Shown piece after piece: positions 3-13,710 of a stretch of DNA of 64,000 nt. The position numbers and the translations under genes are program-made. The stretch comes from Candidatus Latescibacterota bacterium (GTDB lineage: Bacteria > Latescibacterota > UBA2968). The notes beneath the pieces are model-generated. The model made no database searches. It worked only from the letters and a program-made list of their open reading frames with translations, and was not told the origin of the DNA. The first letter of the stretch is position 1. Every line of letters begins with the position of its first letter. The DNA is taken from NCBI GenBank assembly GCA_965116885.1, contig OZ220741.1, forward strand, positions 2,944,001 through 3,008,000, given 5' to 3'.

Positions 3-3000
3 AATGGGACGCAGGCGATCTTGTCCGCCGCGCAAGATCGCATCTCTGCGATATAGCCCCTGTTTGCGATAGCGATTGATGTGGTCGATTAATACAATGC
101 CGTTGTTGACCACAATGCCAAATAAAATGAGCAACCCATAAGTCGCATTGCTATCCAGCGCAATGCCGAATATGTAAAGTCCCAATGCGACGCCTATAAA
201 CGCGAAGCTGATAGAAAACATGATGGTAAATGGATGGATGTACGATTCAAATAGGGAAGCCATGATGAGATAAATGAGCAGGGCGGCAAATATCATGGTG
301 AAATTCGTTTCGCCCTCTTCTGAAGCCATATAGCGGAACCGCCGATCCATCTGCCAGCTATACCCATTGGGCAATGGGATGGCATCCATGCGGTCGCGCA
401 TTTCATAACCGACCGTTTGGACTTCGGATGCTTCCGTGTTTGCGAACACGGTTACGGTTGACATTCGGTCCTGACGCTCGATGGATCGGGGACCTTTGGT
501 CAATTCGAAATCCGCCAGGCTGGCAAATGCAATCATAGTGCCGCGGTTGTTTTCAAAGGAGAGGGTCTTGAGCTGATCCAGCGTGGCGCGGTCTTCCTCT
601 CGCAATTGCAGCGCGATATCAATTTCTCCATCTGGTGTCTTGAATTTGCTATTTCCACGAGAACCCAATGCCGTGGCAACAGTTGTGGCAATTTGCTGGG
701 GTGAAAGGCCGTATTGTTGCGCGCGTTCTCTCCTCACCGAGACCCTGATTTCTTCTGTGCCACTTTCCAGACTGGTTTCCACGTCGTGAATGCCTTCAAT
801 ATCGTCCATTCGCAGCCGAATATCTTCAGCCAGGATAGCCAGCACTTCGGGATTTCGCCCTTTGATTTCTACTCCGACGCCCGTGCCACTGCTGCCACCA
901 CGCCTGTAGCCAGCCTTAAAACGCACGCCCGGGATGTCTTTGGGCAGCAAAGCACTTACCTTTTTTTTCACATCGTCTGTGCTCAACGGACTTTCTTCGA
1001 CGGGTTTTAGGTACAAATAAATCGTATTGCCGCGTCGGGTGCTAAATCGCGTTTTTATCGCTTCGATATCCAGTTCTTCCTTTTGCGGGATGATAATGGC
1101 TTCAATCTGTTTAAAAAGCGCGAGGGCGTCGTCGATATCGTACGTTCGCGGCATTTCCACCATATAGCTCACCCTGCGGTCGGGTTGATAGCGATAGCGC
1201 TGTACTTCAATTTTGGTAAAGATGTATATGCCGCCAAAGAGGATAAATGTCGCGACGACAACGGTGGTCCAGCGATAGTGTAGCGTGGTGCTAATTACGC
1301 GCGTGTAAACACCTTTGAGGCCAAGATGTCGAAATCGGAAATAGAGATAGCCGATTGTGGCGACGAACGCCCCCAGCACGATCCACACGCCTATCGGCAC
1401 GGTTGAAAGTCCGCCCAAAATCCACAGGGTACTATCTTTGAGCCAGGTAGCCGATTCGACAATACCCTCCTGGTAAATGAGATACGCCGCGCCTGCGGCA
1501 AATAAAGTACCCAATCCAATTTTCAAAAAGAGATCGACGCGGGTACCCGCATTTGAAAATGCCCGAGAGCAGGCCAGGGGTATGAGTGTTAAAGCCACGC
1601 ATAGTGCGGCTACGACTGCAATGCATACGGTGATGGCAAAATCGCGCATCCACATTGTATTGTACGAGCCAGAAATGAAGATGAGGGGGACAAAGACACA
1701 TATTGTCGTCAGTGCCGCCGCCAGTACGGGTATGCCGATTTCACGGCTGCCCACAATCGCTGCGGTTCGCGTGCCATCGCCTACATCAAAACGCCTGCGA
1801 TAAATATTTTCCAGAGCCACGACCGCTGGATCGACCAGCATCCCAATGGCGACCATCAGCCCCATCATCGAGATCATGTTCAGCGTGATAGTCGATCCAA
1901 ACACTTGCCGCATCAGATACATGATCATAAAAACGCACAATACCGAAATGGGAATGGCGGACCCCACAATGAGCGTGCTGCGGAAGTTTCGCAAAAACAC
2001 AAAAATGATGCCAATAGCCAGCATGCCTCCCAACATGGCGGATTGCCCCAGGCTGGCAATGCCCCTTACCACTGCTTCTGATTGGTCTCGGCGCAAGTGC
2101 AATCGCAATTTGTCGTGCCCAATTTCATCTTGAAGAGCGTCTAACTCTGCCCGGACCAGGCGGCAGGTTTCTACCAGATTGGCTGCCGAGGTTTTGCGAA
2201 TTTCCATAGAGACCACATCGCGCCCGTCCATGCGTTCAAAATATCGCTTTTCCGGATAGTCGTAACTCACCTGCGCCACATCTTTTATTTCCAGACCATT
2301 GGGAAGCGTGAGATCGCGTATTTGATCCACTTCGTCAAATTCGCCCACTGCCCGCACCGCGAGGCGTTTGTCGCCTTCGGTGACGTAACCGCCAGAAATA
2401 TTGATGTTGTTGGAGCGTATCGTTCTGTTGAGGGTGCGGATGTCCAGGCCATGGGCGTGCATGCGATTTTTATCGACATCGACTCGGAGTATTCTTTCAT
2501 CGACACCTTCCATTTCGACATTGCCCACCCCGGGGATGCGCTGCAAGCGCGGCAAGATCGTGTTTTTATAGACTGTGGCGAGTTCAGATTGATCATCGCC
2601 CAGCCAGATCATGTTGTAGTCCAGAATTTCCCAATCCGACGAGTCCCATCGGCGCATCTCAATGCGTTCGAGGTCTTCGGGGAGTCTGCCGCGAACCTGA
2701 TCTATGCGATCTCGTACCTGAATAGATTTGAGATCCATGTCGGTACCGTAGTCAAATTCCATGAACACATAACCCCGACTGTCATAGGATCGCGCGCGGA
2801 GTGATTCAACGCCGGGAATCGTGCCCAGCATCTCTTCCATTGGCTTGGTAATTTTCTTTTGGATCTCTTCGGGCGATGACGAGGGATATGTATAGCTCAC
2901 ATACATTCTGGGATACTGCAAGTCGGGCGCGTATTCGAGGGGCAATCTGAATAGAGAAATAAAACCCATGACTATGAGACTGAGCGCTATCATTACAGCA

Positions 3001-3038
3001 GTAATGGGTTTTTTGATTGCGTATTCCGAGAGTTTCAT
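3..3038 (-). CDS. RND efflux transporter permease (AcrB/AcrD/AcrF family), 3' end runs off the window
   Basis: Not in the ORF track because there is no stop in the window. Manual translation from ATG 3038 gives MKLSEYAIKKPITAVMIALSL...LPLEYAP...GMLVDPAVVALENI...ASLFESYIHPFTIM...GIVVNNGIVLID...DRLRPI, and the frame is consistent at both ends. Confidence 0.93.
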   Translation of the reverse strand, partial: MKLSEYAIKKPITAVMIALSLIVMGFISLFRLPLEYAPDLQYPRMYVSYTYPSSSPEEIQKKITKPMEEMLGTIPGVESLRARSYDSRGYVFMEFDYGTDMDLKSIQVRDRIDQVRGRLPEDLERIEMRRWDSSDWEILDYNMIWLGDDQSELATVYKNTILPRLQRIPGVGNVEMEGVDERILRVDVDKNRMHAHGLDIRTLNRTIRSNNINISGGYVTEGDKRLAVRAVGEFDEVDQIRDLTLPNGLEIKDVAQVSYDYPEKRYFERMDGRDVVSMEIRKTSAANLVETCRLVRAELDALQDEIGHDKLRLHLRRDQSEAVVRGIASLGQSAMLGGMLAIGIIFVFLRNFRSTLIVGSAIPISVLCVFMIMYLMRQVFGSTITLNMISMMGLMVAIGMLVDPAVVALENIYRRRFDVGDGTRTAAIVGSREIGIPVLAAALTTICVFVPLIFISGSYNTMWMRDFAITVCIAVVAALCVALTLIPLACSRAFSNAGTRVDLFLKIGLGTLFAAGAAYLIYQEGIVESATWLKDSTLWILGGLSTVPIGVWIVLGAFVATIGYLYFRFRHLGLKGVYTRVISTTLHYRWTTVVVATFILFGGIYIFTKIEVQRYRYQPDRRVSYMVEMPRTYDIDDALALFKQIEAIIIPQKEELDIEAIKTRFSTRRGNTIYLYLKPVEESPLSTDDVKKKVSALLPKDIPGVRFKAGYRRGGSSGTGVGVEIKGRNPEVLAILAEDIRLRMDDIEGIHDVETSLESGTEEIRVSVRRERAQQYGLSPQQIATTVATALGSRGNSKFKTPDGEIDIALQLREEDRATLDQLKTLSFENNRGTMIAFASLADFELTKGPRSIERQDRMSTVTVFANTEASEVQTVGYEMRDRMDAIPLPNGYSWQMDRRFRYMASEEGETNFTMIFAALLIYLIMASLFESYIHPFTIMFSISFAFIGVALGLYIFGIALDSNATYGLLILFGIVVNNGIVLIDHINRYRKQGLYRRDAILRGGQDRLRPI

Positions 3039-3302
3039 AAATGGGCCTCAAAGGGGCAAAAATTGAAGGTTGAAGTAAGAAGTGAGACGCGAATCTCAGG
3101 GTGCGTCTATCAGTGACTGAGACAGATTTCGCTAAGTAACCATTTACTTACTTATGGATAATATACCACATTTTATCACAAAAGCAACCACAGTTTTAAA
3201 AAATTTCACCGTTACAGAAAAGACTTGCGATTTTGTTTTAATAGATATTTCATGCTGAAGTCTGGAACATAATCACATATTCACTTTTCAAAGGAGACTT
3301 CC

Positions 3303-4184
3303 ATGGGCAATCGCGTCAATCGCGCAGTTGAGTTGCTTTCAGAAGATCAACCGATCTATTACACGGGCGCACATACCGGGCATGTGCTTACGTTTGAACA
3401 GGGACAGAATGATGCCAGTACCTGGGCGGATTATATCAATGTTGGTATGGAACACGGGGCTTTTAATCTGGGAGGTCTCGACGATTATATGCGCGGTCTG
3501 GTGAGTGGAGGACCTACAAATAGTGGGCACAGGACGCCAGCCGTTATTGTCGAAGCGCCTGTGGAGGGCGCATCGGAAAATATTGTGCGCTACAATGCCT
3601 GGCAATTTCGACAGATTCTCGCGCGCGGTGTACACGGCGTTTTGCTCTGTCAGGCGGAATCGCCCGATGCGATACGCGCTTTTGTCGAATCGTGTCGCTA
3701 TCCCATTAACAAAAGCGGCGTTGGACACGGCCTCAGTACAGGTACTCGAGGCGTGGGGTCCGAATCATCGGCATCAGCGATATGGGGTGTTAGCCGCGAC
3801 GAGTATATTCAGAAGGCCGATCCCTATCCACTGAATCCCGATGGCGAACTGTTGCTGGGCATCAAGATTGAGAATGTGCGCGGTGCATCCAATATCGAAC
3901 AGATTCTCAAGGTGCCCGGTATTGGGTTTGCCGAAATGGGACCGGGCGATTTGAGTATGTCGATGGGGTATTTGCACCGTCCAACGCCTTTTCCTCCCGA
4001 AATGCAGGAGGTGAGGGATCGCGTGAAGGCCGCGTGTGCAGAAAACGGCGTTGCTTTTCTCGAGGGGGGTAGTCCCGAGACGGTTGCCGCAAAAATAGAC
4101 GAGGGCGTGCGCGTGATTTCCGGTGGCAGGGAAGAGATCGCGCGTATTGGACGCGAATATTCAGGCCGTCGCATGCCGGTTTAA
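3303..4184 (+). CDS. HpcH/HpaI aldolase/citrate lyase family protein
   Basis: MEHG, ILARGVHGV, CRYP..GTRG, KIEN, GPGDLSMSMG motifs; AGGAGA RBS. Confidence 0.8.
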   Translation: MGNRVNRAVELLSEDQPIYYTGAHTGHVLTFEQGQNDASTWADYINVGMEHGAFNLGGLDDYMRGLVSGGPTNSGHRTPAVIVEAPVEGASENIVRYNAWQFRQILARGVHGVLLCQAESPDAIRAFVESCRYPINKSGVGHGLSTGTRGVGSESSASAIWGVSRDEYIQKADPYPLNPDGELLLGIKIENVRGASNIEQILKVPGIGFAEMGPGDLSMSMGYLHRPTPFPPEMQEVRDRVKAACAENGVAFLEGGSPETVAAKIDEGVRVISGGREEIARIGREYSGRRMPV

Positions 4185-4230
4185 AGGCGAATCAGCGGAA
4201 CGGGGTACAACTGGTTCGGGACAGTTCATC

Positions 4231-4262
4231 AATGTAGGGGCGGTGCCCCTGTGCCCGCCCGT
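4231..4262 (+). repeat. GTAG-type REP-like palindrome, copy 1
   Basis: AATGTAGGGGCGGTGCCCCTGTGCCCGCCCGT, identical 32-mer at 37795-37826. Confidence 0.85.
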
Positions 4263-4279
4263 TGGGTGGTAGGGCGGGG

Positions 4280-4319
4280 TTCGTCTATTCGTCTATTCGT
4301 CTATTTGTCTATTTGTCTA
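4280..4319 (+). repeat. 8-bp tandem repeat (TTYGTCTA)x5
   Basis: Direct reading; related units near 30929 and in reverse near 39521. Confidence 0.85.
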
Positions 4320-4790
4320 AAATGGATTGCCCTGGCGGGCCAGCTCAAATTTTCGCCAGCCGACTTGTTTGCCATTTTCGAATACTTTTTCCAGTGTGTA
4401 AAAGGAGGACGGGTCGTATTCGCGCCAGACGCCCGTTTTTTTATCTTCCAGATATAGACCTTCCTCTTTTTTCACACCGCTTCTAAAATAGGAAGCCCAA
4501 TACCCGTCTTTTTTTCCGTTTGTCCAGTTGCTTTCTGTGTTTTTTTGTCCATTGCTGTAAAATGTGATTTCAAGCCCGTCTTGCATGACGCCATTTTTGT
4601 ATGTGCCCTGTCCGCGCACGTTGCCCGCAGCATCGTAATATGTCCAAATCCCAGTGCGATCACCGCTGTCGTATTGTCCTTTTGCCACTACGCGGCCGTA
4701 TTGTTTTATTTCTGTCTGTCCTTCAAATAGCGAGGGCATCTGACACCCGGCTGTGAGGATTGCCACGAGAAGAATTACAACTTTGATCAT
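4317..4790 (-). CDS. MORN-variant repeat (YwqK-like) lipoprotein
   Basis: Lipobox LTAGC after a hydrophobic signal (start moved to ATG 4790); repeats RTGIWTYY, KDGYWASYFRSG, KTGVWREY. Confidence 0.8.
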   Translation of the reverse strand: MIKVVILLVAILTAGCQMPSLFEGQTEIKQYGRVVAKGQYDSGDRTGIWTYYDAAGNVRGQGTYKNGVMQDGLEITFYSNGQKNTESNWTNGKKDGYWASYFRSGVKKEEGLYLEDKKTGVWREYDPSSFYTLEKVFENGKQVGWRKFELARQGNPF

Positions 4791-4947
4791 TTTTTTCTCC
4801 TGTTTCTTTGATGGATATTTTAATGTAATATAACTAATATACAAAACTGCTTTCATAAGGCAAAGATGAAATGACAAATGACTTGTTTAGTGTCTGTGCG
4901 TAAATTGGATCTCAACCAAAAAGCGATTGCACTCAACGATCTCTTTA

Positions 4948-4976
4948 TTGTTACCACCATCCTCTCATAGTATTTT
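4948..4976 (+). promoter_or_regulatory. Putative sigma70 promoter of the XRE-cyclase/ahcY/metF unit
   Basis: TTGTTA-17 bp-TATTTT. Confidence 0.4.
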
Positions 4977-5012
4977 GTAAACAGTTCGCCCATTGGGATA
5001 ACAAGTCCAAAT

Positions 5013-5738
5013 ATGTTACTCACCGAACTTGGCCAACGCCTTCGCGCTCAACGGGAACGCCTTGGCCTCAAGCAAAACGACGTTGCCAATGCCCTGCAGG
5101 TAAGCCCACAGGCCGTTTCCAAGTGGGAAAGGGGTGAAAACGGTCCCGACATCGCTACTCTGGGACCTCTTGCCAGATTGCTCGGCGTTTCTACGGACTG
5201 GCTTTTGGATGCACATGGCGAAAATCAAGATGTTTTTGATGCCACTATCTTCACATCCACAGTTGTCGGTGCATACCAAAAATCATTGCAAATGGAGGCG
5301 CGAGAGTTTGCAGCATGGGCAAATGGTATTTTGTTTCAATTGACCGAAGCTGTGTTGCGCCATGATGGCGTTCCGCTCAGATATATGGGAGACGCATTTT
5401 TGTGTTTTTTTTCCGGCGTTCACCATCAGCTTCGCGCTGCCCAGGCAGCGGCATTTTCCCAGCGGCTCATCAGCGAAGATCTGGTCATTGGCTTGAGCAG
5501 TGGTGAGATTTATTTGGGGGCAATGGGGCATCCCGATTACGCTCATCCGGATGTGACCGGAGAAGTGGTCAACATCGCATTTATTGTTCGAGAATGGGCA
5601 GAAACGAATGTCCGCAAAGGGATTGCAGCAACGACATCCGTGTCAAACAATCTCGATGAGGTTTTTGATATTTCCCAACCCACAGAAATCAATTTTCGAG
5701 GCATCGAAACGCCTATTTCAATTTGCGAGATCAGATAG
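5013..5738 (+). CDS. XRE-family HTH regulator fused to a degenerate class III adenylate/guanylate cyclase-like domain
   Basis: N-term LKQNDVANALQVSPQAVSKWERG...LARLLGVSTDWLL; C-term RYMGDAFLCFF, IGLSSGEIYLGAMG, GEVVNIA. Confidence 0.85.
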   Translation: MLLTELGQRLRAQRERLGLKQNDVANALQVSPQAVSKWERGENGPDIATLGPLARLLGVSTDWLLDAHGENQDVFDATIFTSTVVGAYQKSLQMEAREFAAWANGILFQLTEAVLRHDGVPLRYMGDAFLCFFSGVHHQLRAAQAAAFSQRLISEDLVIGLSSGEIYLGAMGHPDYAHPDVTGEVVNIAFIVREWAETNVRKGIAATTSVSNNLDEVFDISQPTEINFRGIETPISICEIR

Positions 5739-5768
5739 GGGTATGCCAACCGAGAGAAAGGATAAAAT

Positions 5769-7220
5769 ATGGCCGATGTAGTGTTGCCCGATAGCGCGAT
5801 TGATATTCAAATTCCCGATTATTCGCACCTGCCCTATAAAGTCGCCGATATGTCTCAGGCAGATTTTGGACGGAAAGAGATCACAATTGCCGAGCAGGAG
5901 ATGCCCGGTTTGATGGCTGTGCGCGAAAAATACGCAGACCAGAAACCTCTGAAGGGTGCCCGCATAACGGGCTCGCTTCACATGACGATTCAGACCGCTG
6001 TGTTGATTGAGTCGCTCAAAGTGCTGGGAGCCGATGTGCGTTGGGCGTCGTGTAATATTTTTTCAACACAAGACCACGCTGCTGCCGCGATTGCAGAAAC
6101 GGGTACGCCGGTCTATGCGTGGAAGGGCGAGTCGCTGGAAGAGTATTGGGAATGCACTTTGCAGGCACTCAATTTTGTGGAGGGCGGACCGACACTTATT
6201 GTCGATGATGGAGGAGATGCGACGTTGCTGGTTCATAGGGGGTATCAGGCAGAAGACGATCCTTCAATTCTCGATGAGCCGACCGATAATCGCGAATTGG
6301 AGATTGTCAATGCCGTGCTGAGGCGGCAACTCGAGCGCGATCCGCGTTTTTGGCATAATATGGCTGTGGATATTCAGGGCGTGTCAGAGGAGACTACAAC
6401 GGGTGTTCACCGCCTGTATCAGATGCGGGATGACGGCACGCTTCTCTTTCCCGCGATAAATGTCAATGATTCGGTGACCAAATCGAAATTCGATAATCTC
6501 TATGGCTGCCGCGAATCGCTCGCCGATGGTATTAAGCGCGCGACGGATGTTATGGTCGCTGGTAAGGTCGTTTGCGTGTGCGGTTACGGTGATGTGGGCA
6601 AGGGATGTGCCCAGTCTATGCGGGGATTTGGCGCGCGCGTGTTGGTGACGGAGATCGATCCGATATGTGCTTTGCAGGCGGCGATGGAGGGCTTTGAAGT
6701 GACGACTGTGGAAGATGCCCTTTCCGAAGCCAATATTTTTGTTACGACGACGGGAAATACAGATATTATCCGCATTGAGCACATGAAAAATATGCTCGAT
6801 CAATCCATTGTGTGCAATATCGGGCATTTCGACAATGAGATTCAGGTCGATAAGCTGGTCGATTATCCGGGTATTGAGCACGAAAATATCAAGCCGCAGG
6901 TCGATAAATACACGTTTCCAGATGGGCATGCGATTTTTTTGCTCGCAGAAGGCCGTCTGGTCAATCTCGGCTGTGCAACCGGGCATCCTTCTTTTGTGAT
7001 GTCCAATTCTTTTACGAATCAGGTGCTGGCGCAGATGGATCTGTGGGCACAACAGCGCGAAGTCGGCGTTTATACGTTGCCCAAACACCTCGACGAGGAG
7101 GTTGCGCGCCTTCATCTTGAAAAACTCGGTGTAAAGTTGACTCAACTCACGCAGAAGCAGGCCGATTATATTGGCGTGTCTGTCGAAGGTCCGTATAAAC
7201 CCGGTCATTACCGGTATTAA
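5769..7220 (+). CDS. ahcY: Adenosylhomocysteinase
   Basis: [59 protein letters not shown]. Confidence 0.99.
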
Positions 7221-7226
7221 CGCTCA

Positions 7227-7261
7227 GGGGCTGGGAGCTTATTCCCAGTCCCAACTTTTTT
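7227..7261 (+). terminator. Terminator-like hairpin between ahcY and metF
   Basis: GGGCTGGGA / TCCCAGTCC stem followed by a T run ending just before the metF ATG. Confidence 0.6.
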
Positions 7262-8140
7262 ATGCGATTTTTAGACTATTTTACCGGCAATCAACCGGTC
7301 ATTTCGTTTGAGATTTATCCGCCGCAGACGCCGGGTGGTATGCGCGCGCTCAAAGCGCGGATTGTGCCCAATTTGCTCAAGTTGAATCCCAGTTATATGA
7401 CGGTTACGTATGGCGCTGGTGGCTCTACTCGCGCTAAGACGCTGGAGATTGCCTCGCTTATCCAGAACGAATTTGGTCTGACTTCGGCGTGTCATCTCAC
7501 CTGTGTGGGATCGTCCCGAACGGATATCGATGATATTTTGAAGGCGATTCGCACAGAGGGTATTCGCAATATTGTCGCGCTTCGCGGCGATCCTCCGCGT
7601 GGCGAAGATACTTTTGTGCCTGCCAAGGATGGATTTGCTTATGGCAATGAGCTTGTGGCGCATATTCGCAGTACGGAACCGAAAGACGATGGGTTTGGGT
7701 TGGCTGTTGCGGGGTATCCCGAGAAACACCTCGAAGCGCCCGATTTCGATACGGATATTGCAAATTTGAAGCGGAAGGTTGAGTCTGGTGGAGATATTGT
7801 TATTACGCAGCTTTTTTATAATAACGATAACTTTTTTCGTTTTGTCGATCGCGTGCGTGCAGCCCGTATCACAGCACCTGTTGTTCCGGGTCTGATGCCG
7901 ATTCTCGCGGCGGGACAGATCCAGCGCATCGCATCTCTGTGCGGGGCTGAGATTCCTCAGGATTTGCAGGATCAACTCAGGGGGGCTGTGGATGATGAAG
8001 ACAAGGCGATGAAAATCGGTATTGATCAGTGTATCGCGCAGGCGACTGAATTGCTCGAACAGGGCGTGCCGGGTATTCACTTTTACGTGCTGAACAAATC
8101 CACTCACATGCGCCAGATTATCAAAGCACTTCCTCTCTAA
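7262..8140 (+). CDS. metF: Methylenetetrahydrofolate reductase
   Basis: SFEIYPP, VTYGAGG, HLTCV, ALRGDPP, AGYPEKH, ITQLF, GIHFYVLN. Confidence 0.98.
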   Translation: MRFLDYFTGNQPVISFEIYPPQTPGGMRALKARIVPNLLKLNPSYMTVTYGAGGSTRAKTLEIASLIQNEFGLTSACHLTCVGSSRTDIDDILKAIRTEGIRNIVALRGDPPRGEDTFVPAKDGFAYGNELVAHIRSTEPKDDGFGLAVAGYPEKHLEAPDFDTDIANLKRKVESGGDIVITQLFYNNDNFFRFVDRVRAARITAPVVPGLMPILAAGQIQRIASLCGAEIPQDLQDQLRGAVDDEDKAMKIGIDQCIAQATELLEQGVPGIHFYVLNKSTHMRQIIKALPL

Positions 8141-8738
8141 GTGGAAATTTTTCAGTGATCAGCATGATTGGCTTTTTATTGGCGAGCACTCTGTAGGTGC
8201 GGCAGAGAAGAGGTTCCCCTTCAAGGTGTGCGATGTTCTGTGGCATATCTCGTGCGGTTTCATAGCAGCACCACAACAATTCACGGCGGGTTTCCAGTCC
8301 GCTGTTTTGCAAGATCCCTCCCAGTCCCGCAGGATCTGATTCCAATTCGTCCAAGATGCCTTTGGGCAAGTGTTGTGGTACAATGAGAGATGTGGCATAT
8401 GCCTGAATTTTTGGCGTTTCTTTGCCGATTGAGGGGGTTTGTAGTACTACTTGTCGCGCGATGACTGGTGCCCCTGATGGCAGACAGAGCCAGATGTGCT
8501 CGGTGCAGAGTGTCTGTTCCTCCTGGTGGAGAATCGTGACTTCTACCGGTGCGAGTGTATAGGCTTCGATGAGCCTTGTGACGGTGCCGTCGGTGACGAT
8601 TAATGCCCGCTGAAAGGGCGTTAATTGCGCGATGTTGATTTCTCCAGACATTGCTGGCCTTTCGGCTTGTGCGATAAATATATTTTTTACGTGCGTGTCA
8701 GCAAAGGTTGCCGAATTGAAAATTGGATCTGTCTTCAT
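8121..8738 (-). CDS. Chorismate pyruvate-lyase-like (DUF98/UbiC-fold) protein
   Basis: QRALIVTDGTVTRLIEA, RQVVL, LGGIL...ETRRE, RTYRV...PIMLITEKFP; convergent 20-nt overlap with metF. Confidence 0.8.
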   Translation of the reverse strand: MKTDPIFNSATFADTHVKNIFIAQAERPAMSGEINIAQLTPFQRALIVTDGTVTRLIEAYTLAPVEVTILHQEEQTLCTEHIWLCLPSGAPVIARQVVLQTPSIGKETPKIQAYATSLIVPQHLPKGILDELESDPAGLGGILQNSGLETRRELLWCCYETARDMPQNIAHLEGEPLLCRTYRVLANKKPIMLITEKFPLREEVL

Positions 8739-8866
8739 CGAGCTATTGTCCTTTCATATATACAGTTGTTGTGTAACGCAATGCACTTTAGACACATAAG
8801 GACAAAAAAAGTTCTGAAACATTGCATGTGTGATTCTAATCCGTTATTTTGATGGGGAAGAGCGCA

Positions 8867-9631
8867 ATGAGAATAGTTACATGGAATGTAAATGGATTGC
8901 GGGCTGCACTTCGCAAGGGGTTTATGGATCATATTAAAACGCTAAACCCCGATGTGATCCTTTTGCAAGAAATTCGCGTTTTGCCCGAGCAACTATCTGC
9001 GAGAGAACGCAATCCCGAGGGATGGCATGTTATCTGGCATCCGGCCGAGCGCAAGGGCTATGCGGGTACAGCGGTATGGTCTCGCACGCCGTTAAGTGAG
9101 GAAGAGCGCGGTGTGGGAGAGGGCGATTCCGAAGGCCGGATTTTGCGGGTGAGCACTCTGGGGATTCAATTTGTCAGCGTGTACCTGCCTTCGGGATCTT
9201 CAGGCGATGAGCGCCAGGCGATCAAGGAATGCTGGATGGATCGCTTTCGCCTCTGGGCCGATGGCCTGGTCAAAAAACGGGTTCCCATAATTATGGGCGG
9301 TGATTTTAATATCGCGCATACCGAACGCGATATTTTTTATGCTAAAAGCAACGAAAAGAATTCGGGTTTTTTGCCGCATGAACGTGCGTGGATAGGCGAT
9401 CTCATCTCATCGGGCTGGCGCGATTTTACGCGAGAACACTACGGCGATATTCAGGGGCCGTATTCCTGGTGGTCCAATCGGGGAAGAGCGAGGGAATTGG
9501 ACCGCGGCTGGCGCATTGACTATTTGTTGGGCAATGCAGCAGCCGCAAAGCGCGTTCAATCTGCCCATGTTGACCGCGAAGGCGGTTTGACCATATCTGA
9601 TCACGCACCGGTTGTTGTAGATTTGAAATAG
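8867..9631 (+). CDS. xth: Exodeoxyribonuclease III
   Basis: TWNVNGLRA, LQE, EGR, GDFNIAH, YSWWSNR, GWRIDY, SDHAP. Confidence 0.97.
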   Translation: MRIVTWNVNGLRAALRKGFMDHIKTLNPDVILLQEIRVLPEQLSARERNPEGWHVIWHPAERKGYAGTAVWSRTPLSEEERGVGEGDSEGRILRVSTLGIQFVSVYLPSGSSGDERQAIKECWMDRFRLWADGLVKKRVPIIMGGDFNIAHTERDIFYAKSNEKNSGFLPHERAWIGDLISSGWRDFTREHYGDIQGPYSWWSNRGRARELDRGWRIDYLLGNAAAAKRVQSAHVDREGGLTISDHAPVVVDLK

Positions 9632-9653: not shown

Positions 9654-11084
9654 ATGCACACTCTTGAAAAACATCCTTTTGCAGCGTTATTTGGCATTGA
9701 TGAAAGTGTGTCAGCGCAGGCATTGTCCGAAGCGATGTCCCGAGGTGCCGAATTTGCCGATCTGTATTTTCAGTATGTGCGTACGACGTCTCTCAGTTTA
9801 GAAGATGGCATTATTTCCAGTGCCAATACAGGTATTGATCAAGGCGTGGGGATTCGCGCGGTGATTGGAGATCAGGTTGGCTATGCTTTTTCCGAGAGTT
9901 TAGAAGCAGACGCGATTTATAAGGCTGCCCGGACAGCAGCTGCGATAGCAGAGGGTACAAAGAATATGCCGCCGCAACACTTGCAGGGTAGTGAGGTTGA
10001 TAATTATTACGCGATTGACCGCGATTGGGATGAGGTCAATATTACCGAACGTCTGCCATTGGTGCAAAGTGCAGAGACGATGACTCGCGCAATGGATCCC
10101 TCAATAGAAAAGGTGTCTGTAGGATGGATGGACAGGGATGAGCGCGTGCTCATTGTGACCAGCGATGGTGTTTTCAGTACGGATCGTCGGCCTATGGCGA
10201 CGCTGTATTGCTCGGTGACTGCGAACAAGAATGGCGTGCGGCAGAGCAATGGGGCTTCGGTCTCTCGGCGCGAGGGTATTGACTATTTCACTGGGGAAAA
10301 CATCAGAGCGGTCTGTCAAAAGGCAGTTGATCGCACGATGATTCTCTTTGAGGCGCAGCGCCCACCTGCTGGCGAAATGCCGGTGGTGCTTGCAGCAGGT
10401 GCTTCGGGTATTTTGCTCCACGAGGCGATTGGTCACGGTCTGGAAGCGGATTTCAATCGCAAGGGTACTTCTATTTACGCGACGATGATGAATGAGAAAG
10501 TCGCCCCGGATTTTGTGACGATTGTCGATGATGGTTTGCAGGAAAATGATCGCGGGGCTCTCAATGTAGATGACGAAGGCCAGGCTACTGCGTGTACGAC
10601 GCTTATTGAGAACGGCGTCTTAAAAAGCTATTTGCACGACCGCATTTCGGCAAAACACTACGGGGTTGCGCCCACGGGGTCGGGCCGCCGCGAGAGTTTT
10701 CGGCATGTTCCTATGCCGCGTATGCGATCTACGTATATGCTCGACGGACCCCACACCCGCGACGAGATTATCGGTGCTGTCGATTACGGCATTATTGCCG
10801 ATACCTTTACCAATGGACAGGTGCAAATTGGCGCGGGAGATTTTACTTTTTATATTAAGAATGGATGGCTTATCGAAGGCGGCAAAATTACTGCGCCGAT
10901 CAAGGATGTCAATATTATTGGCAATGGTCCCGAGGCTTTGAAAAATGTGGTTATGGCAGCAGGCGATGCCGTGCTGGACGATGGCAGCTGGACGTGTGGA
11001 AAAAATGGACAGGGTGTGCCCGTTTCGATGGGCGTTCCGACGATGCTGGTGGAAGAGAGTATGACTGTGGGTGGGGTGAACTAA
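9654..11084 (+). CDS. tldD: TldD metalloprotease
   Basis: HEAIGHGLEAD, DDEG, GRRES..PMPRM, CGKNGQ.VPV. Confidence 0.96.
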   Translation: MHTLEKHPFAALFGIDESVSAQALSEAMSRGAEFADLYFQYVRTTSLSLEDGIISSANTGIDQGVGIRAVIGDQVGYAFSESLEADAIYKAARTAAAIAEGTKNMPPQHLQGSEVDNYYAIDRDWDEVNITERLPLVQSAETMTRAMDPSIEKVSVGWMDRDERVLIVTSDGVFSTDRRPMATLYCSVTANKNGVRQSNGASVSRREGIDYFTGENIRAVCQKAVDRTMILFEAQRPPAGEMPVVLAAGASGILLHEAIGHGLEADFNRKGTSIYATMMNEKVAPDFVTIVDDGLQENDRGALNVDDEGQATACTTLIENGVLKSYLHDRISAKHYGVAPTGSGRRESFRHVPMPRMRSTYMLDGPHTRDEIIGAVDYGIIADTFTNGQVQIGAGDFTFYIKNGWLIEGGKITAPIKDVNIIGNGPEALKNVVMAAGDAVLDDGSWTCGKNGQGVPVSMGVPTMLVEESMTVGGVN

Positions 11085-12401
11085 ATGGAACGAGAACTTC
11101 TCCAACAGGCAGAACGAGCGATCGAGCAGGCGCGCAGGGCGGGGGCAAATGATGCGATAGCGCGGGTGCGGGATGAAAACAGCACGGAGTACACGTATCG
11201 CGATGGCAATATCGAGCAGGTTCAACAAAGTGCTACCCGCGGCTTGAGCATTCAATTGTATGTCAATGGGCGGTATTCGACACATCAGACCTCGGATTTG
11301 CGCGCGGCGTCAGTTGCCCGGTTTATCGAAGATGCGGTTGCGCTGACGCAACATCTGGCCGAAGATCCGCATCGCGTTATTCCCGATGCTGCGTTGTATG
11401 CAAATCGTCCGGATACCGATCTTCAATCCGATGATGCAGTGGTGCGCGATTTGCCCCGCGAAGCGTGTATTGATTGGCTAAAAAAGATGGATGCTGTCAC
11501 CCATATAGATGACCGCGTGGTGAGTGCTTCCGCTGGTGCCTACTATGGTTGGAATACGTCGGCTCGGGTGAGTTCAAATGGATTTTCGGGGATACAGAGC
11601 GGGACTTCGATAGGCTATGGTGCGAGTGTGACGCTCAAAGAGGGCGAGCATGGGCGTCCCGAAGATCATCGCTATGTGCGGGCACATCATTTGTCGGATT
11701 TGCCCGATCCTGAGACGGTTGCGCGCGAGGGCCTCGATCGCGCGATTTCCCGATTGGGCAGTGAAAAAGCACCGAGCGAGCGGGCGACTATGGTGGTTGA
11801 TCCCGAAGCGGGCGGGCGTTTGATTGGCGCGATATGGGGCGCGTTGCAGGCGCGCAGCGTTCAGCAGAACCGGTCTTTTCTCGCTGATAAAAAAGACGCG
11901 CAGATTGCCAGTTCGCTCCTGACGGTGACAGATGATCCTCTGATGGTGCGCGGTCTCGCATCTCGGCATTACGATGGCGAGGGCATTTCGACAAAGTGCA
12001 GATGCGTCATCGATCAGGGCGTTTTGCAAATGTATTACGTCGATACGTATTACGGGCGCAAACTCGGCTGGGAGCCTTCAACGGGAACGTCGTCCAATCT
12101 CGTTTTTGCGCCGGGCAATAAAGATCTCAATGGCCTGGTTTCAGAGATTAAAGACGGCTTTCACGTCACGTCGTGGCTCGGCGGCAATGCCGATACGACG
12201 ACTGGAGATTTTTCTTATGGTTTTCGCGGCTTTCGCATTGCCAACGGGCAGAAAACAGGTGCGGTATCGGAAATGAATATCGCTGGCAATTTTCTCGATC
12301 TGTTGCAAAATCTCGTCGCTGTGGGCAATGATCCCAATGTCTATTCCAGTATGCAGACGCCCACTTTGGTTTTTGACAATGTGGCGTTTAGCGGGAAGTA
12401 A
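11085..12401 (+). CDS. pmbA: TldE/PmbA protein
   Basis: Abuts tldD; DGEG, TGDFS, EMNIAGN; no HEXXH. Confidence 0.93.
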   Translation: MERELLQQAERAIEQARRAGANDAIARVRDENSTEYTYRDGNIEQVQQSATRGLSIQLYVNGRYSTHQTSDLRAASVARFIEDAVALTQHLAEDPHRVIPDAALYANRPDTDLQSDDAVVRDLPREACIDWLKKMDAVTHIDDRVVSASAGAYYGWNTSARVSSNGFSGIQSGTSIGYGASVTLKEGEHGRPEDHRYVRAHHLSDLPDPETVAREGLDRAISRLGSEKAPSERATMVVDPEAGGRLIGAIWGALQARSVQQNRSFLADKKDAQIASSLLTVTDDPLMVRGLASRHYDGEGISTKCRCVIDQGVLQMYYVDTYYGRKLGWEPSTGTSSNLVFAPGNKDLNGLVSEIKDGFHVTSWLGGNADTTTGDFSYGFRGFRIANGQKTGAVSEMNIAGNFLDLLQNLVAVGNDPNVYSSMQTPTLVFDNVAFSGK

Positions 12402-12429: not shown

Positions 12430-13710
12430 ATGTCTGCCGCAAAAACGCCGCGCCATATTGCATTGGATATTCTCTGCCGCGTTGAACGGGGCGCATATCT
12501 CGACCGCTTGCTCGACGCACAACGCGAGCATATTCGCGATCCCGATGGCGATTTGCTTCAACATCTCGTGCGGGGTACGCTGACCTATCGGGCGCGGCTC
12601 GACCATATTTTGACGCCCTATCTCAAAAAATCCCTGTCCAGACAGCACGCAAAACTCCGCAATCTCCTGCGCCTGGGGGTTTATCAACTCCAGTATCTCG
12701 ACCGCGTGCCGCCTTATGCGGTTGTTTCTGAATCTGTTATTCTCGCCCGTCACATTCTCGGGGAGCCGATTGCGAAATTGGTCAATGCCGTGTTGCGCGG
12801 TGTGGCCGAAAATCGCAAGCCTGTTGTTTTTCCCGATTTTGATCGCAATCCCGTCGAATATCTCGCCATCGCGACATCACATCCCCGGTGGCTCGTTGCG
12901 CGGTGGGTCAAACGCTATGGCGTGGATGAAACACGCGCCCTGTGTGAATTTGACAATGCCCAACCCGCCCTCACTGTTCGCCCCAATGCGTTGCGAACGA
13001 CGCCCGATGCCCTGCGCGAACAACTCGCGCTCGAAGGGATTGACACCGAATTTGCAGCGTCCGATCTTCTCACAGTATCTCAGGCGGGCCACCTTTTTCA
13101 GAGCAGGGCTTATTGCGATGGCCTCTTTAGCGTTCAAGGCGCGGGGGCTGCGATGGTTGTTCCCCTGCTCGATCCCCAACCCGGCGAGGCTGTTCTCGAT
13201 TTGTGTAGTGCGCCCGGTGGTAAAGCCACTGCTATGGCGGAGCGCATGAAGAATCGGGGTTTTATTTTCGCTATAGATCTCTATCCGCGCCGTCTCGAAA
13301 TATTAAAACAAAACACGCATCGGCTCGGAGTTAAATGTGTTTATCCACTCGCTGCCGATGCGCGTTATCTGGCTGTCAACCGCTTATTTGATCGGGTTCT
13401 GGTCGATGTGCCCTGTTCTTCGCTGGGTATTTTGAATCACCATCCCGACTTGCGCTGGCGGGAGTGTGATATTCACGGTCTTGCGCGTTTGCAGCGTGCC
13501 CTTATCGAACGCGCTGCCGATTACATGCGCCCGGGCGGTGTTCTCGTCTATAGTACTTGTACCCTTGAACCGGAGGAAAATGAGCGCGTTGTCGAAGGCT
13601 TTTTAAGCGATCATCCGGGCTTTCAGATTACCCATCCCTATCTGCAATTGCTACCCCATCAAACTGGTAATGACGGTGTTTTTGCCGCGCGGTTGGAGCG
13701 CTCCGTTTAG
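12430..13710 (+). CDS. rsmB: 16S rRNA m5C967 methyltransferase
   Basis: NusB-like N-terminus, SHPRW, DLCSAPGGK, DVPCS, YSTCT..PEENE. Confidence 0.95.
   Translation: MSAAKTPRHIALDILCRVERGAYLDRLLDAQREHIRDPDGDLLQHLVRGTLTYRARLDHILTPYLKKSLSRQHAKLRNLLRLGVYQLQYLDRVPPYAVVSESVILARHILGEPIAKLVNAVLRGVAENRKPVVFPDFDRNPVEYLAIATSHPRWLVARWVKRYGVDETRALCEFDNAQPALTVRPNALRTTPDALREQLALEGIDTEFAASDLLTVSQAGHLFQSRAYCDGLFSVQGAGAAMVVPLLDPQPGEAVLDLCSAPGGKATAMAERMKNRGFIFAIDLYPRRLEILKQNTHRLGVKCVYPLAADARYLAVNRLFDRVLVDVPCSSLGILNHHPDLRWRECDIHGLARLQRALIERAADYMRPGGVLVYSTCTLEPEENERVVEGFLSDHPGFQITHPYLQLLPHQTGNDGVFAARLERSV

Follow-up and report, generated by a model that had tools for sequence, protein, structure and literature searches.

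A putative transcription factor with a degenerate class III cyclase domain that may serve the S-adenosylhomocysteine branch of the methyl cycle

In the genome of a Candidatus Latescibacterota bacterium (NCBI GenBank assembly GCA_965116885.1), a gene whose product joins a DNA-binding head to a damaged nucleotide cyclase domain stands directly in front of two genes of the methyl cycle, which raises the question of what such a protein might do there. The locus lies in the stretch of DNA that we call the window, which comprises 64,000 nucleotides of contig OZ220741.1 (positions 2,944,001 to 3,008,000 of the forward strand). Three open reading frames (ORFs) follow one another on its plus strand. 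The first (5013-5738, 241 amino acids) encodes the putative regulator, composed of an XRE-type helix-turn-helix (HTH) and a degenerate class III cyclase-homology domain. The second (5769-7220, 483 amino acids) is ahcY, which encodes S-adenosyl-L-homocysteine hydrolase (adenosylhomocysteinase; TIGR00936, 629 bits, cut-off 497.6) and, as judged by its linkage to the regulator, is the conserved target. The third (7262-8140, 292 amino acids) is metF, which encodes methylenetetrahydrofolate reductase (TIGR00676, 315.5 bits, cut-off 293.7) and is the last gene of the putative operon. Only 30 nucleotides (5739-5768) separate the regulator stop codon from the start of ahcY, and ahcY is likewise followed by metF in close relatives (L001, L002, L003 and L022) and in sister genomes that lack the regulator.

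The explanation that we consider probable is that the protein is a one-component transcription factor dedicated to the S-adenosylhomocysteine (SAH) branch of the methyl cycle. The core of this explanation, which the comparisons described below make very likely, is that a dimer binds two tandem 15-bp units resembling TCAAC-N5-GTTGA upstream of the regulator-ahcY-metF promoter. If this core is correct, the balance tips slightly toward the cyclase-homology domain being the receptor for an adenosyl compound, most likely SAH, and it is reasonably probable that the SAH-liganded protein activates transcription. The argument is built on features that are observed, namely the domain architecture, the fold, the residue pattern, the gene linkage, the geometry of operator and promoter, and the co-occurrence of operator and regulator.

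Loci for comparison were drawn from one-genome-per-species collections by a pattern scan and by domain-profile searches of three phyla. The pattern scan returned 80 loci, from which we kept the 22 that reach into the cyclase-like domain and dropped 58 matches to the HTH only. Domain-profile searches gave family-level matches (at least 175 bits, with the next-best match at 77.5 bits) in 28 of 168 Latescibacterota genomes, and matches in 34 of 135 Hydrogenedentota genomes and 14 of 401 sampled Planctomycetota genomes, for which only eight candidates per genome were scored. Removal of identical regulator genes left 82 distinct loci, many of which are close kin, such that the neighborhood counts are not independent. 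The same-strand gene directly downstream of the regulator is ahcY in 58 of these loci, metH in three (TIGR02082, 1155 bits), a ThrC/MetM-like gene scoring as threonine synthase in five (TIGR00260, 217 bits), adenosine deaminase in one (TIGR01430, 310 bits) and something else in 12; the remaining three end with the contig. The linkage to ahcY is seen in Latescibacterota, Hydrogenedentota, Planctomycetota, Nitrospinota and Armatimonadota, and ahcY-linked regulators occupy both main clades of a maximum-likelihood regulator tree with 62 rows. In this tree the window clade is nested beside Hydrogenedentota sequences, and two Hydrogenedentota regulators that follow acrB group with Planctomycetota-type sequences, patterns that suggest transfer between phyla.

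The regions upstream of the regulator genes share a distinctive element. The arrangement CAAC-N17-CAAC, in which two boxes lie 21 bp apart, is present in 14 of 23 non-redundant upstream regions of 250 nucleotides, at 71 to 115 nucleotides before the start codon, as compared with a mean of 0.09 and a maximum of 1 in 1000 shuffles. From these 14 sites we built a 45-nucleotide position weight matrix (PWM) for the composite operator. Its hit in the window (4910-4954, score 35.1) is the best in the 5.56-Mb genome, where only seven other positions on both strands reach 19 bits. Among 44 further loci tested, the top score at any other place on either strand is 15.2. Of the 36 loci that have ahcY or metH downstream, 34 exceed this value in front of the regulator, and the two misses are L115 (10.8) and L123 (8.7). 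When four loci that repeat earlier ones are set aside, the operator is found in 31 of 32. The PWM detected no operator upstream of the regulator in any of the eight further loci lacking ahcY or metH downstream (best score 0.4), nor in L006, where the context is adenosine deaminase, or in L011, L013, L019 and L021.

In the window, the distal operator unit (TCAACCAAAAAGCGA, plus strand, 4912-4926) and the proximal unit (TCAACGATCTCTTTA, plus strand, 4933-4947) are offset by 21 bp, and the proximal unit abuts a predicted -35 hexamer, TTGTTA (4948-4953). A spacer of 17 nucleotides leads to a predicted -10 hexamer, TATTTT (4971-4976), with the predicted transcription start near 4983. The control region, from the first operator unit through the -10 element, therefore spans 65 bp (4912-4976), and the predicted leader that precedes the ATG at 5013 is only about 30 nucleotides long. 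The consensus of 70 distinct sites is TCAACC-N4-CG-N-gA-(6 nt)-TCAAC-gA-N2-gCgTCA-TTG, each unit reading TCAAC-N5-(C/G)(G/T)T(C/G)A, and perfect TCAAC-N5-GTTGA palindromes occur in G244, G604, G314, L148 and L149. It was the discovery of these palindromes in relatives that led us to replace an operator register of CAAC-N9-ATTG. An inverted repeat within the promoter region (TTGTTACCACCAT at 4948-4960 and ATTGGGATAACAA at 4992-5004) was also considered as an operator and was dropped, as it is not conserved in relatives.

The operator is fused to the promoter with precision. In 63 of the 70 sites the proximal unit runs straight into a TTG, and in 57 a -10-like TAnnnT lies 16 to 18 nucleotides farther downstream (exactly 17 nucleotides in 43), whereas shuffled controls averaged 4.1 and never exceeded 12. 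When 16 upstream regions from the genus and family are aligned, the two TCAAC boxes, ATTG and the -10 element are invariant amid variable, indel-rich sequence. The -35 hexamers are weak, with a mean of 3.8 of six matches to TTGACA and an A at position 4 in just seven of 70 sites. A consensus promoter scan did not list the proposed promoter, whose hexamers fall short of the 9-of-12 rule of that scan, and we infer the promoter instead from its conservation across sites.

A preliminary description of this DNA, made from its letters without database searches, had already placed the co-oriented regulator 30 bp upstream of ahcY and metF, as the ORF coordinates bear out. It had also suggested footprinting of positions 4880-5012, which reveals the conserved tandem operator fused to a promoter, and a check of whether homologs consistently neighbor methyl-cycle genes, which the counts for ahcY (58 of 82), metH (three), ThrC/MetM-like genes (five) and adenosine deaminase (one) answer in the affirmative. 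Indeed, all of its predictions that can be tested computationally came out as predicted.

An operator that lies ahead of a regulator and its neighbor could reflect mere autoregulation of that neighbor, and the key test against this possibility is whether the operator is also present where ahcY is unlinked. For this test we turned to 13 genomes whose regulator is immediately followed by a gene other than ahcY. Twelve of them are informative (G707 offers only 159 nucleotides of sequence upstream of ahcY). The unlinked ahcY carries the composite operator at 18.8 to 28.9 bits in seven of the 12 (G314, 20.2; G604, 22.9; G244, 21.2; G245, 18.8; G372, 28.1; G460, 28.1; G634, 28.9). Thus, the operator tracks the target gene rather than the regulator gene. 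In G372 and G460 the regulator precedes metH and ahcY resides elsewhere with an operator of its own, and therefore the regulon in these genomes includes at least two operons. In contrast to ahcY, metK is preceded by no PWM-detectable operator in any of five genomes, that of the window included.

The reverse comparison, in which the regulator is missing, gives a matching result. The regulator is absent from six of 20 other genomes of the window genus, and in five complete genomes of this kind the operator was not found (best score 13.0 bits, inside metF), while the order MORN gene - ahcY - metF is kept. Likewise, no operator precedes ahcY in five of five Hydrogenedentota genomes that lack the regulator (best score 2.8). 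Homology between the window and the closest regulator-less genome (92% nucleotide identity) ends at 4888 and resumes at 5741, and the intervening 852 bp of operators and regulator (4889-5740) are replaced there by 91 bp carrying a TTGACT-17-TAACTT promoter. The -35 element of the regulator-less sister genomes is TTGACT or TTGACG, which is better than the -35 linked to the operator. The regulator and operator thus come and go together as a cassette.

We take the regulon in the window genome to be a single operon. The next-best composite operator hit in this genome scores 23.0 bits (1783609-1783653; L111 2110-2154) and precedes, at a short distance, a TTGACA-17-TATAAT promoter and an ORF of 72 amino acids. 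The 1.1 kb around it contain only small ORFs that match no known family. This hit could be due to chance or could mark a second target. The other hits of at least 18.4 bits were rejected as targets, being located inside long ORFs or before unrelated genes (a STAS-domain ORF, a major facilitator superfamily transporter and an aldehyde dehydrogenase).

Transcript data are consistent with the proposed operon. Metatranscriptome contigs, from libraries labelled sponge metagenome, hold 58 to 75% of the sampled words of positions 4800-8200, and the contigs of four RNA runs from two studies were placed on the window. They span the regulator-ahcY junction in all four runs and the ahcY-metF gap in three of the four. 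This pattern fits a single regulator-ahcY-metF transcription unit, although such contigs cannot prove a single transcript. The bridged ahcY-metF gap includes a terminator-like hairpin of 11 pairs, seven of them G-C (7227-7252, plus strand), followed by the T-run AACTTTTTTA, and this hairpin may be a partial terminator that sets the ratio of ahcY to metF. A contig of run X5 begins at 4983, which is the predicted transcription start. However, contigs of runs X1, X2 and X4 begin at 4857, 4806 and 4884, and for this reason we take the X5 end as a faint hint and claim no start from these data. Run X5 also has no cover over 6818-7433 and an empty bin at 4816-4969, gaps to which we attach no evidential weight.

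The preliminary description named SAH and S-adenosylmethionine (SAM) riboswitches among the usual controllers of these genes. No Rfam family, riboswitches included, matches window positions 3000-9000 at E ≤ 1, and the Rfam searches of 20 regulator loci (at gathering scores) and five regulator-less loci likewise gave no match. The usual riboswitch control is thus not found at this locus or in the 20 related ones.

What kind of protein would recognize this operator? The HTH occupies amino acids 10-64 (nucleotides 5040-5204, plus strand) and matches HTH_3 (PF01381) at 59.4 bits against a cut-off of 23, as expected for a member of the XRE family. The cyclase-homology part covers approximately amino acids 73-240 (nucleotides 5229-5732, plus strand), and its assignment comes from fold and profile matches. 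An AlphaFold2 model built on 36 homologs has a mean pLDDT of 87.9, and a Foldseek search with this model retrieves Cya2 (2w01) at E 1.2e-12, with 1wc1 (CyaC) and 3r5g (CyaB) also among the top matches. Overall, the E values against class III cyclases are approximately 1e-12 to 1e-11 with target-normalized TM scores of 0.7 to 0.8, as would be expected of a cyclase fold. A profile of the cyclase-like domain alone matches the same PDB cyclases at E 3.7e-15. Some relatives also exceed the 21.9-bit threshold of the Pfam Guanylate_cyc family (PF00211), including L011 (28.4 bits), P0126 (44.3) and P0138 (75 bits). On the combined basis of modeled fold, domain profile and sister proteins above threshold, we regard the cyclase homology of the C-terminal domain as settled.

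The family defined by this architecture is compact. A search of the regulator gave 868 relatives at E ≤ 1e-3, the best 120 of which are all 240 to 316 amino acids long, 56 to 97% identical and aligned over essentially their full length. When the domain profile was compared with 1.84 billion cluster representatives, 50 clusters matched at E ≤ 1e-30, nearly all of them proteins of about 245 amino acids with the domain at residues 70-240, or fragments. Weaker matches are no longer separable from the wider cyclase superfamily (52,172 matches at E ≤ 1e-3).

Residues were mapped by HMMER alignment of the regulator to Cya2 and CyaB. The position of the first metal-binding Asp is T83 in the window protein, and the second (GD) Asp is retained as D127, such that only one of the two metal ligands is present. 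The purine-specifying positions are R123, in place of Lys, and D180. The Asn of the VNxAxR motif is retained as N187, the transition-state Arg is replaced by I191, and the C-terminal Lys position is R229. We also tabulated these positions in 149 members, consisting of the query, its best 120 relatives and 28 domain-profile matches of 230 to 290 amino acids. Position 83 is Ser in 75, Thr in 40, Gly in 16, Asp in nine and Ala in eight, and position 191 is Leu in 125, Arg in 13 and Ile in four. In contrast to these losses, position 123 is Lys in 136 (Ser in eight, Arg in four), and D127, D180 and N187 are retained in 144, 148 and 142 members, respectively. The commonest patterns are S-K-D-D-N-L (67) and T-K-D-D-N-L (27), and further near-invariant positions specific to the family are H173, Y176, R141, H138, W102 and N104. 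As judged from these alignments, the residues for chemistry are gone and those that hold adenine and ribose are retained across the family.

Much of this protein had been read correctly from the letters. The preliminary description saw an XRE-HTH fused to a pseudo-cyclase, with the first metal Asp changed to Thr, the transition-state Arg lost, and the GD Asp and the Asn kept, and the HTH_3 match, the fold and profile matches and the alignment to Cya2 and CyaB agree on each count. Its reading of the purine-selecting Lys as Arg holds for the window protein and does not extend to the family, where Lys prevails. Its wider interpretation, a dead cyclase that may have been turned into a sensor of SAH, SAM or adenosine, is supported by the comparisons made here.

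The mechanism that we favor follows from these parts. In class III cyclases the cyclase domains must pair, and the nucleotide pockets form where the two partners meet; dimerization through the cyclase-homology domain would set two HTH heads on one 15-bp unit. Two such dimers would then occupy the tandem sites (4912-4926 and 4933-4947) directly upstream of the -35 element. Deprived of the first metal Asp and the transition-state Arg, the domain would no longer make cyclic AMP (cAMP), and its pocket would instead hold an adenosyl ligand without triphosphate chemistry. When SAH rises, the liganded protein would contact RNA polymerase from about -43 and -64 and increase transcription. The outcome would be more AhcY, and elsewhere more MetH, MetF, ThrC/MetM-like enzyme or adenosine deaminase, which would pull SAH hydrolysis forward.

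One step in this scheme for which there is a rival reading is the sign of regulation. The same regulator, operator and signal could serve a repressor, in which unliganded protein blocks the -35 element, SAH releases it, and the operon is subject to negative autoregulation. We regard this arrangement as a distinct possibility to which we give somewhat less than even weight. The proximal unit touches the -35 element, such that occlusion is possible, and negative feedback would be in keeping with the place of the regulator gene at the head of its own operon. Moreover, Leyn et al. (2014; PMC4239095) describe two known regulators that respond to SAH, SahR and McbR, as repressors. However, both sites lie fully upstream of the -35 element (at about -71 to -36), which leaves the -10 element, never covered, and the transcription start accessible. 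The register relative to the -35 element is exact in 63 of 70 sites, drawn from several phyla, and such constancy is characteristic of activators that make contact with RNA polymerase. Finally, the operator-linked -35 element is weak, whereas the regulator-less sisters use TTGACT or TTGACG. Activation is favored because a nucleotide-exact register is combined with a weak -35 element and sites that all lie upstream of it, and because genomes without the regulator use a better -35 element.

A second alternative leaves the regulator and regulon intact and assigns the effector role to another adenine compound, namely SAM, adenosine, methylthioadenosine, ATP or cAMP. This, too, we judge to be less likely than not. 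The retained Lys/Asp pair, Asn and Asp specify only the adenine-ribose moiety; an adenosine deaminase gene follows the regulator in one locus; and a methionine regulon that responds to SAM could likewise be expected to include metH, metF and what may be a homocysteine synthase of the MetM type. On the other hand, ahcY is the dominant target (58 of 82 loci), metK is outside the regulon in all five genomes searched, and the loss of metal and triphosphate transition-state residues argues against ATP. An adenosyl ligand is expected because the adenine and ribose residues are kept and the metal and transition-state residues are lost, and SAH is preferred over SAM because ahcY is at the center of a regulon that also takes in metH, metF and, in one case, adenosine deaminase but leaves out metK. 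The same regulon logic separated SahR from SamR (Leyn et al., 2014; PMC4239095).

It is quite improbable, in our assessment, that the cyclase-like domain is nothing more than a dimerization scaffold in a ligand-free autoregulator. Class III cyclase domains do dimerize, as is well established. Yet K123, D127, D180 and N187 are kept in 91 to 99% of the 149 sequences despite the loss of catalysis, the near-invariant family-specific residues listed above would be needless for a mere scaffold, and a ligand-free regulator of ahcY would have no evident purpose. Even less credence can be given to the idea that the protein is an active adenylate or guanylate cyclase to which an HTH is merely attached. 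It does retain the fold and some of the motifs, and the divergent sisters P0138 and P0144 (245 amino acids, with XRE and cyclase parts) keep the complete D-K-D-D-N-R catalytic set and may be DNA-binding adenylate cyclases that still work. In contrast, the window protein has Thr at the first metal Asp and Ile at the transition-state Arg, and the predominant patterns of the family are S-K-D-D-N-L and T-K-D-D-N-L. The family seems to have descended from HTH-fused cyclases, possibly ones that are still active, and despite the superfamily structure we do not file it among cyclases because the defining catalytic features fail. Least credible of all is a generic XRE protein, such as a phage repressor or antitoxin, whose adjacency to ahcY is accidental. 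In its favor, the HTH has weak NCBIfam likenesses to RstR, DicA and HipB-type models, all far under their cut-offs. Against it, no phage or toxin genes occur in the immediate neighborhood, the linkage and operator are conserved over at least five phyla, and the operator before unlinked ahcY contradicts it.

A number of observations weigh against the dedicated SAH-responsive activator that we propose. DNA binding, ligand binding, the identity of the ligand and the sign of regulation are each inferred, and a site that abuts the -35 element would suit repression equally well. The right arm of the operator unit is weak (a mean of 2.2 to 2.4 of five matches to GTTGA over the 70 sites), and because it is only weakly palindromic the half-site model is not secure. 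The PWM detects no operator before ahcY in regulator-bearing genomes G326, G708 and G709, the ahcY upstream region of G482 scores only 11.6, and that of G341 scores only 2.8, though an ACAAC-N5-GTTGA unit is visible there. Unrelated neighbors (for example acrB, a HEAT-repeat gene and ispG) follow the regulator in 12 of 79 informative loci, and the ThrC-like target is not obviously accounted for by an SAH signal. With regard to the protein, the Guanylate_cyc match of the regulator itself (amino acids 79-230) reaches 16.0 bits (E 0.0095), which is under the cut-off, and Arg at position 123 is peculiar to the window genus, the adenine-pairing Lys being found elsewhere. Lastly, DNA carry-over in the RNA libraries is not excluded as the source of the bridging contigs.

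A more ambitious version of the proposal joins several claims at once: that the protein is a direct receptor for SAH, that it would be the first transcription factor with a cyclase-homology sensor, that it acts as a class-II-type activator, that the cassette moves between phyla to replace a constitutive promoter ahead of ahcY, and that the sisters with intact catalytic residues mark the route from a DNA-bound adenylate cyclase to a sensor of a metabolite. We advance this conjunction tentatively, as one that would more readily fail than hold in all its parts.

Among known systems, the closest functional counterpart is SahR, a member of the ArsR family that responds to SAH and regulates genes of the SAM cycle in Alpha- and Deltaproteobacteria and in some Gammaproteobacteria (PMC4239095). 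The two share a regulon core of ahcY with metH and metF, a likeness of function and not of family membership, and in both cases the regulator gene is upstream of and adjoins its targets, is apparently self-regulating and is distributed patchily in lineages that use AhcY. They differ in that the protein described here joins an XRE HTH to a cyclase-homology domain, and Pfam and NCBIfam scans matched it to no ArsR model, only to XRE-type HTH models. Its operator consists of tandem 15-bp units, whereas SahR uses a 20-bp palindrome; metK belongs to the SahR core regulon and is no target in the five genomes searched here; and the site position here suggests activation. The analogy to SahR drawn in the preliminary description therefore stands for the regulon and probably for the signal, and fails for the family and, given the position of the sites, probably for the mechanism.

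SAH riboswitches occur upstream of ahcY-metF operons (PMC4239095), and thus control the same type of operon in response to what is presumably the same metabolic signal. They are RNA elements, whereas the locus examined here has no Rfam match and a predicted leader of only about 30 nucleotides. McbR, a TetR-type repressor of Corynebacterium, is also a protein regulator of sulfur amino acid metabolism said to respond to SAH, and it differs in family and in its much wider regulon, which covers methionine and cysteine synthesis (PMC4239095).

With respect to its sensor domain, the protein shares the fold, the GD Asp, the Asn and the Lys/Asp purine pair with the class III cyclases Cya2 (2w01), CyaC of S. 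platensis (1wc1) and CyaB of P. aeruginosa (3r5g). Unlike these enzymes, it has lost the first metal Asp and the transition-state Arg, carries a fused DNA-binding head and is predicted to be non-catalytic. With respect to its DNA-binding head, the nearest parallel is offered by XRE proteins of the lambda cI and 434 type, which bind tandem operators as dimers, and cI activates PRM from an operator that abuts the -35 element. The protein at this locus likewise combines an XRE-type HTH with tandem operators, the promoter-proximal one abutting the -35 element. However, it has a cyclase-fold C-terminus in place of the LexA/S24-like domain for oligomerization and cleavage, and its gene is chromosomal and metabolic and is not from a phage.

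A literature search, whose scope did not extend to subscription journals and supplements, found no description of an XRE-cyclase regulator of ahcY, and we rate the protein as a one-component metabolite-responsive regulator with a sensor domain previously unseen in that role. SAH strongly inhibits the methyltransferases that depend on SAM (PMC4239095), and because of this inhibition cells that use AhcY must match its level to methylation flux. The known solutions, SahR, McbR and SAH riboswitches, have been studied mainly in Proteobacteria and Actinobacteria. If our explanation is true, the family would be the counterpart regulator of the SAH branch in five little-studied phyla. We know of no described regulation of the methyl cycle in Latescibacterota, Hydrogenedentota, Planctomycetota, Nitrospinota or Armatimonadota, although no search was aimed at this point. 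A 'pseudo-cyclase' would also have been assigned a function, with the adenine pocket of a class III cyclase re-used as a metabolite sensor wired to DNA. Moreover, if the protein responds to SAH, the small size of the system (241 amino acids and a 65-bp control region) could allow it to serve as a compact SAH biosensor.

Some regulator homologs are found in other settings. In four Hydrogenedentota loci (L013, L121, L140 and L021) the homolog is located about 20 nucleotides after a gene for an AcrB-type resistance-nodulation-division pump, with no operator upstream, and in two genomes with an acrB-linked regulator (G244 and G245) the operator is found in front of the distant ahcY. In another family of Latescibacterota (L016 and L099-L104), the regulator heads a gene for a protein of 472 amino acids that scores as threonine synthase, which could be a MetM-type homocysteine synthase. 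The operator at L016 scores 42.5 bits, and the ahcY gene of the same genome (G709) is without an operator.

The genes that flank the operon in the window are of other kinds. The MORN-repeat gene lies upstream on the opposite strand (4317-4877). Downstream, a gene resembling chorismate pyruvate-lyase (8121-8738, minus strand; Rv2949c-like, E 5e-16) is convergent with metF, and its ORF coordinates overlap the final 20 nucleotides of metF. Farther along are ordinary genes for a TldD/PmbA metallopeptidase pair (9654-11084 and 11085-12401), and, after it, for a 16S rRNA methyltransferase of the RsmB type that includes a NusB domain (12430-13710). An intergenic element of about 130 nucleotides (4190-4319) ends in five tandem copies of TTCGTCTA (4280-4319) and is present in multiple copies in the genome, as evident by 182 blastn-short matches, at least 10 of which are near full length at 91 to 98% identity. 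It looks like a repeat of the REP (repetitive extragenic palindromic) or MITE (miniature inverted-repeat transposable element) type, and RNA-library contigs are heaped upon it to a depth of 160 to 400 with numerous loose ends.

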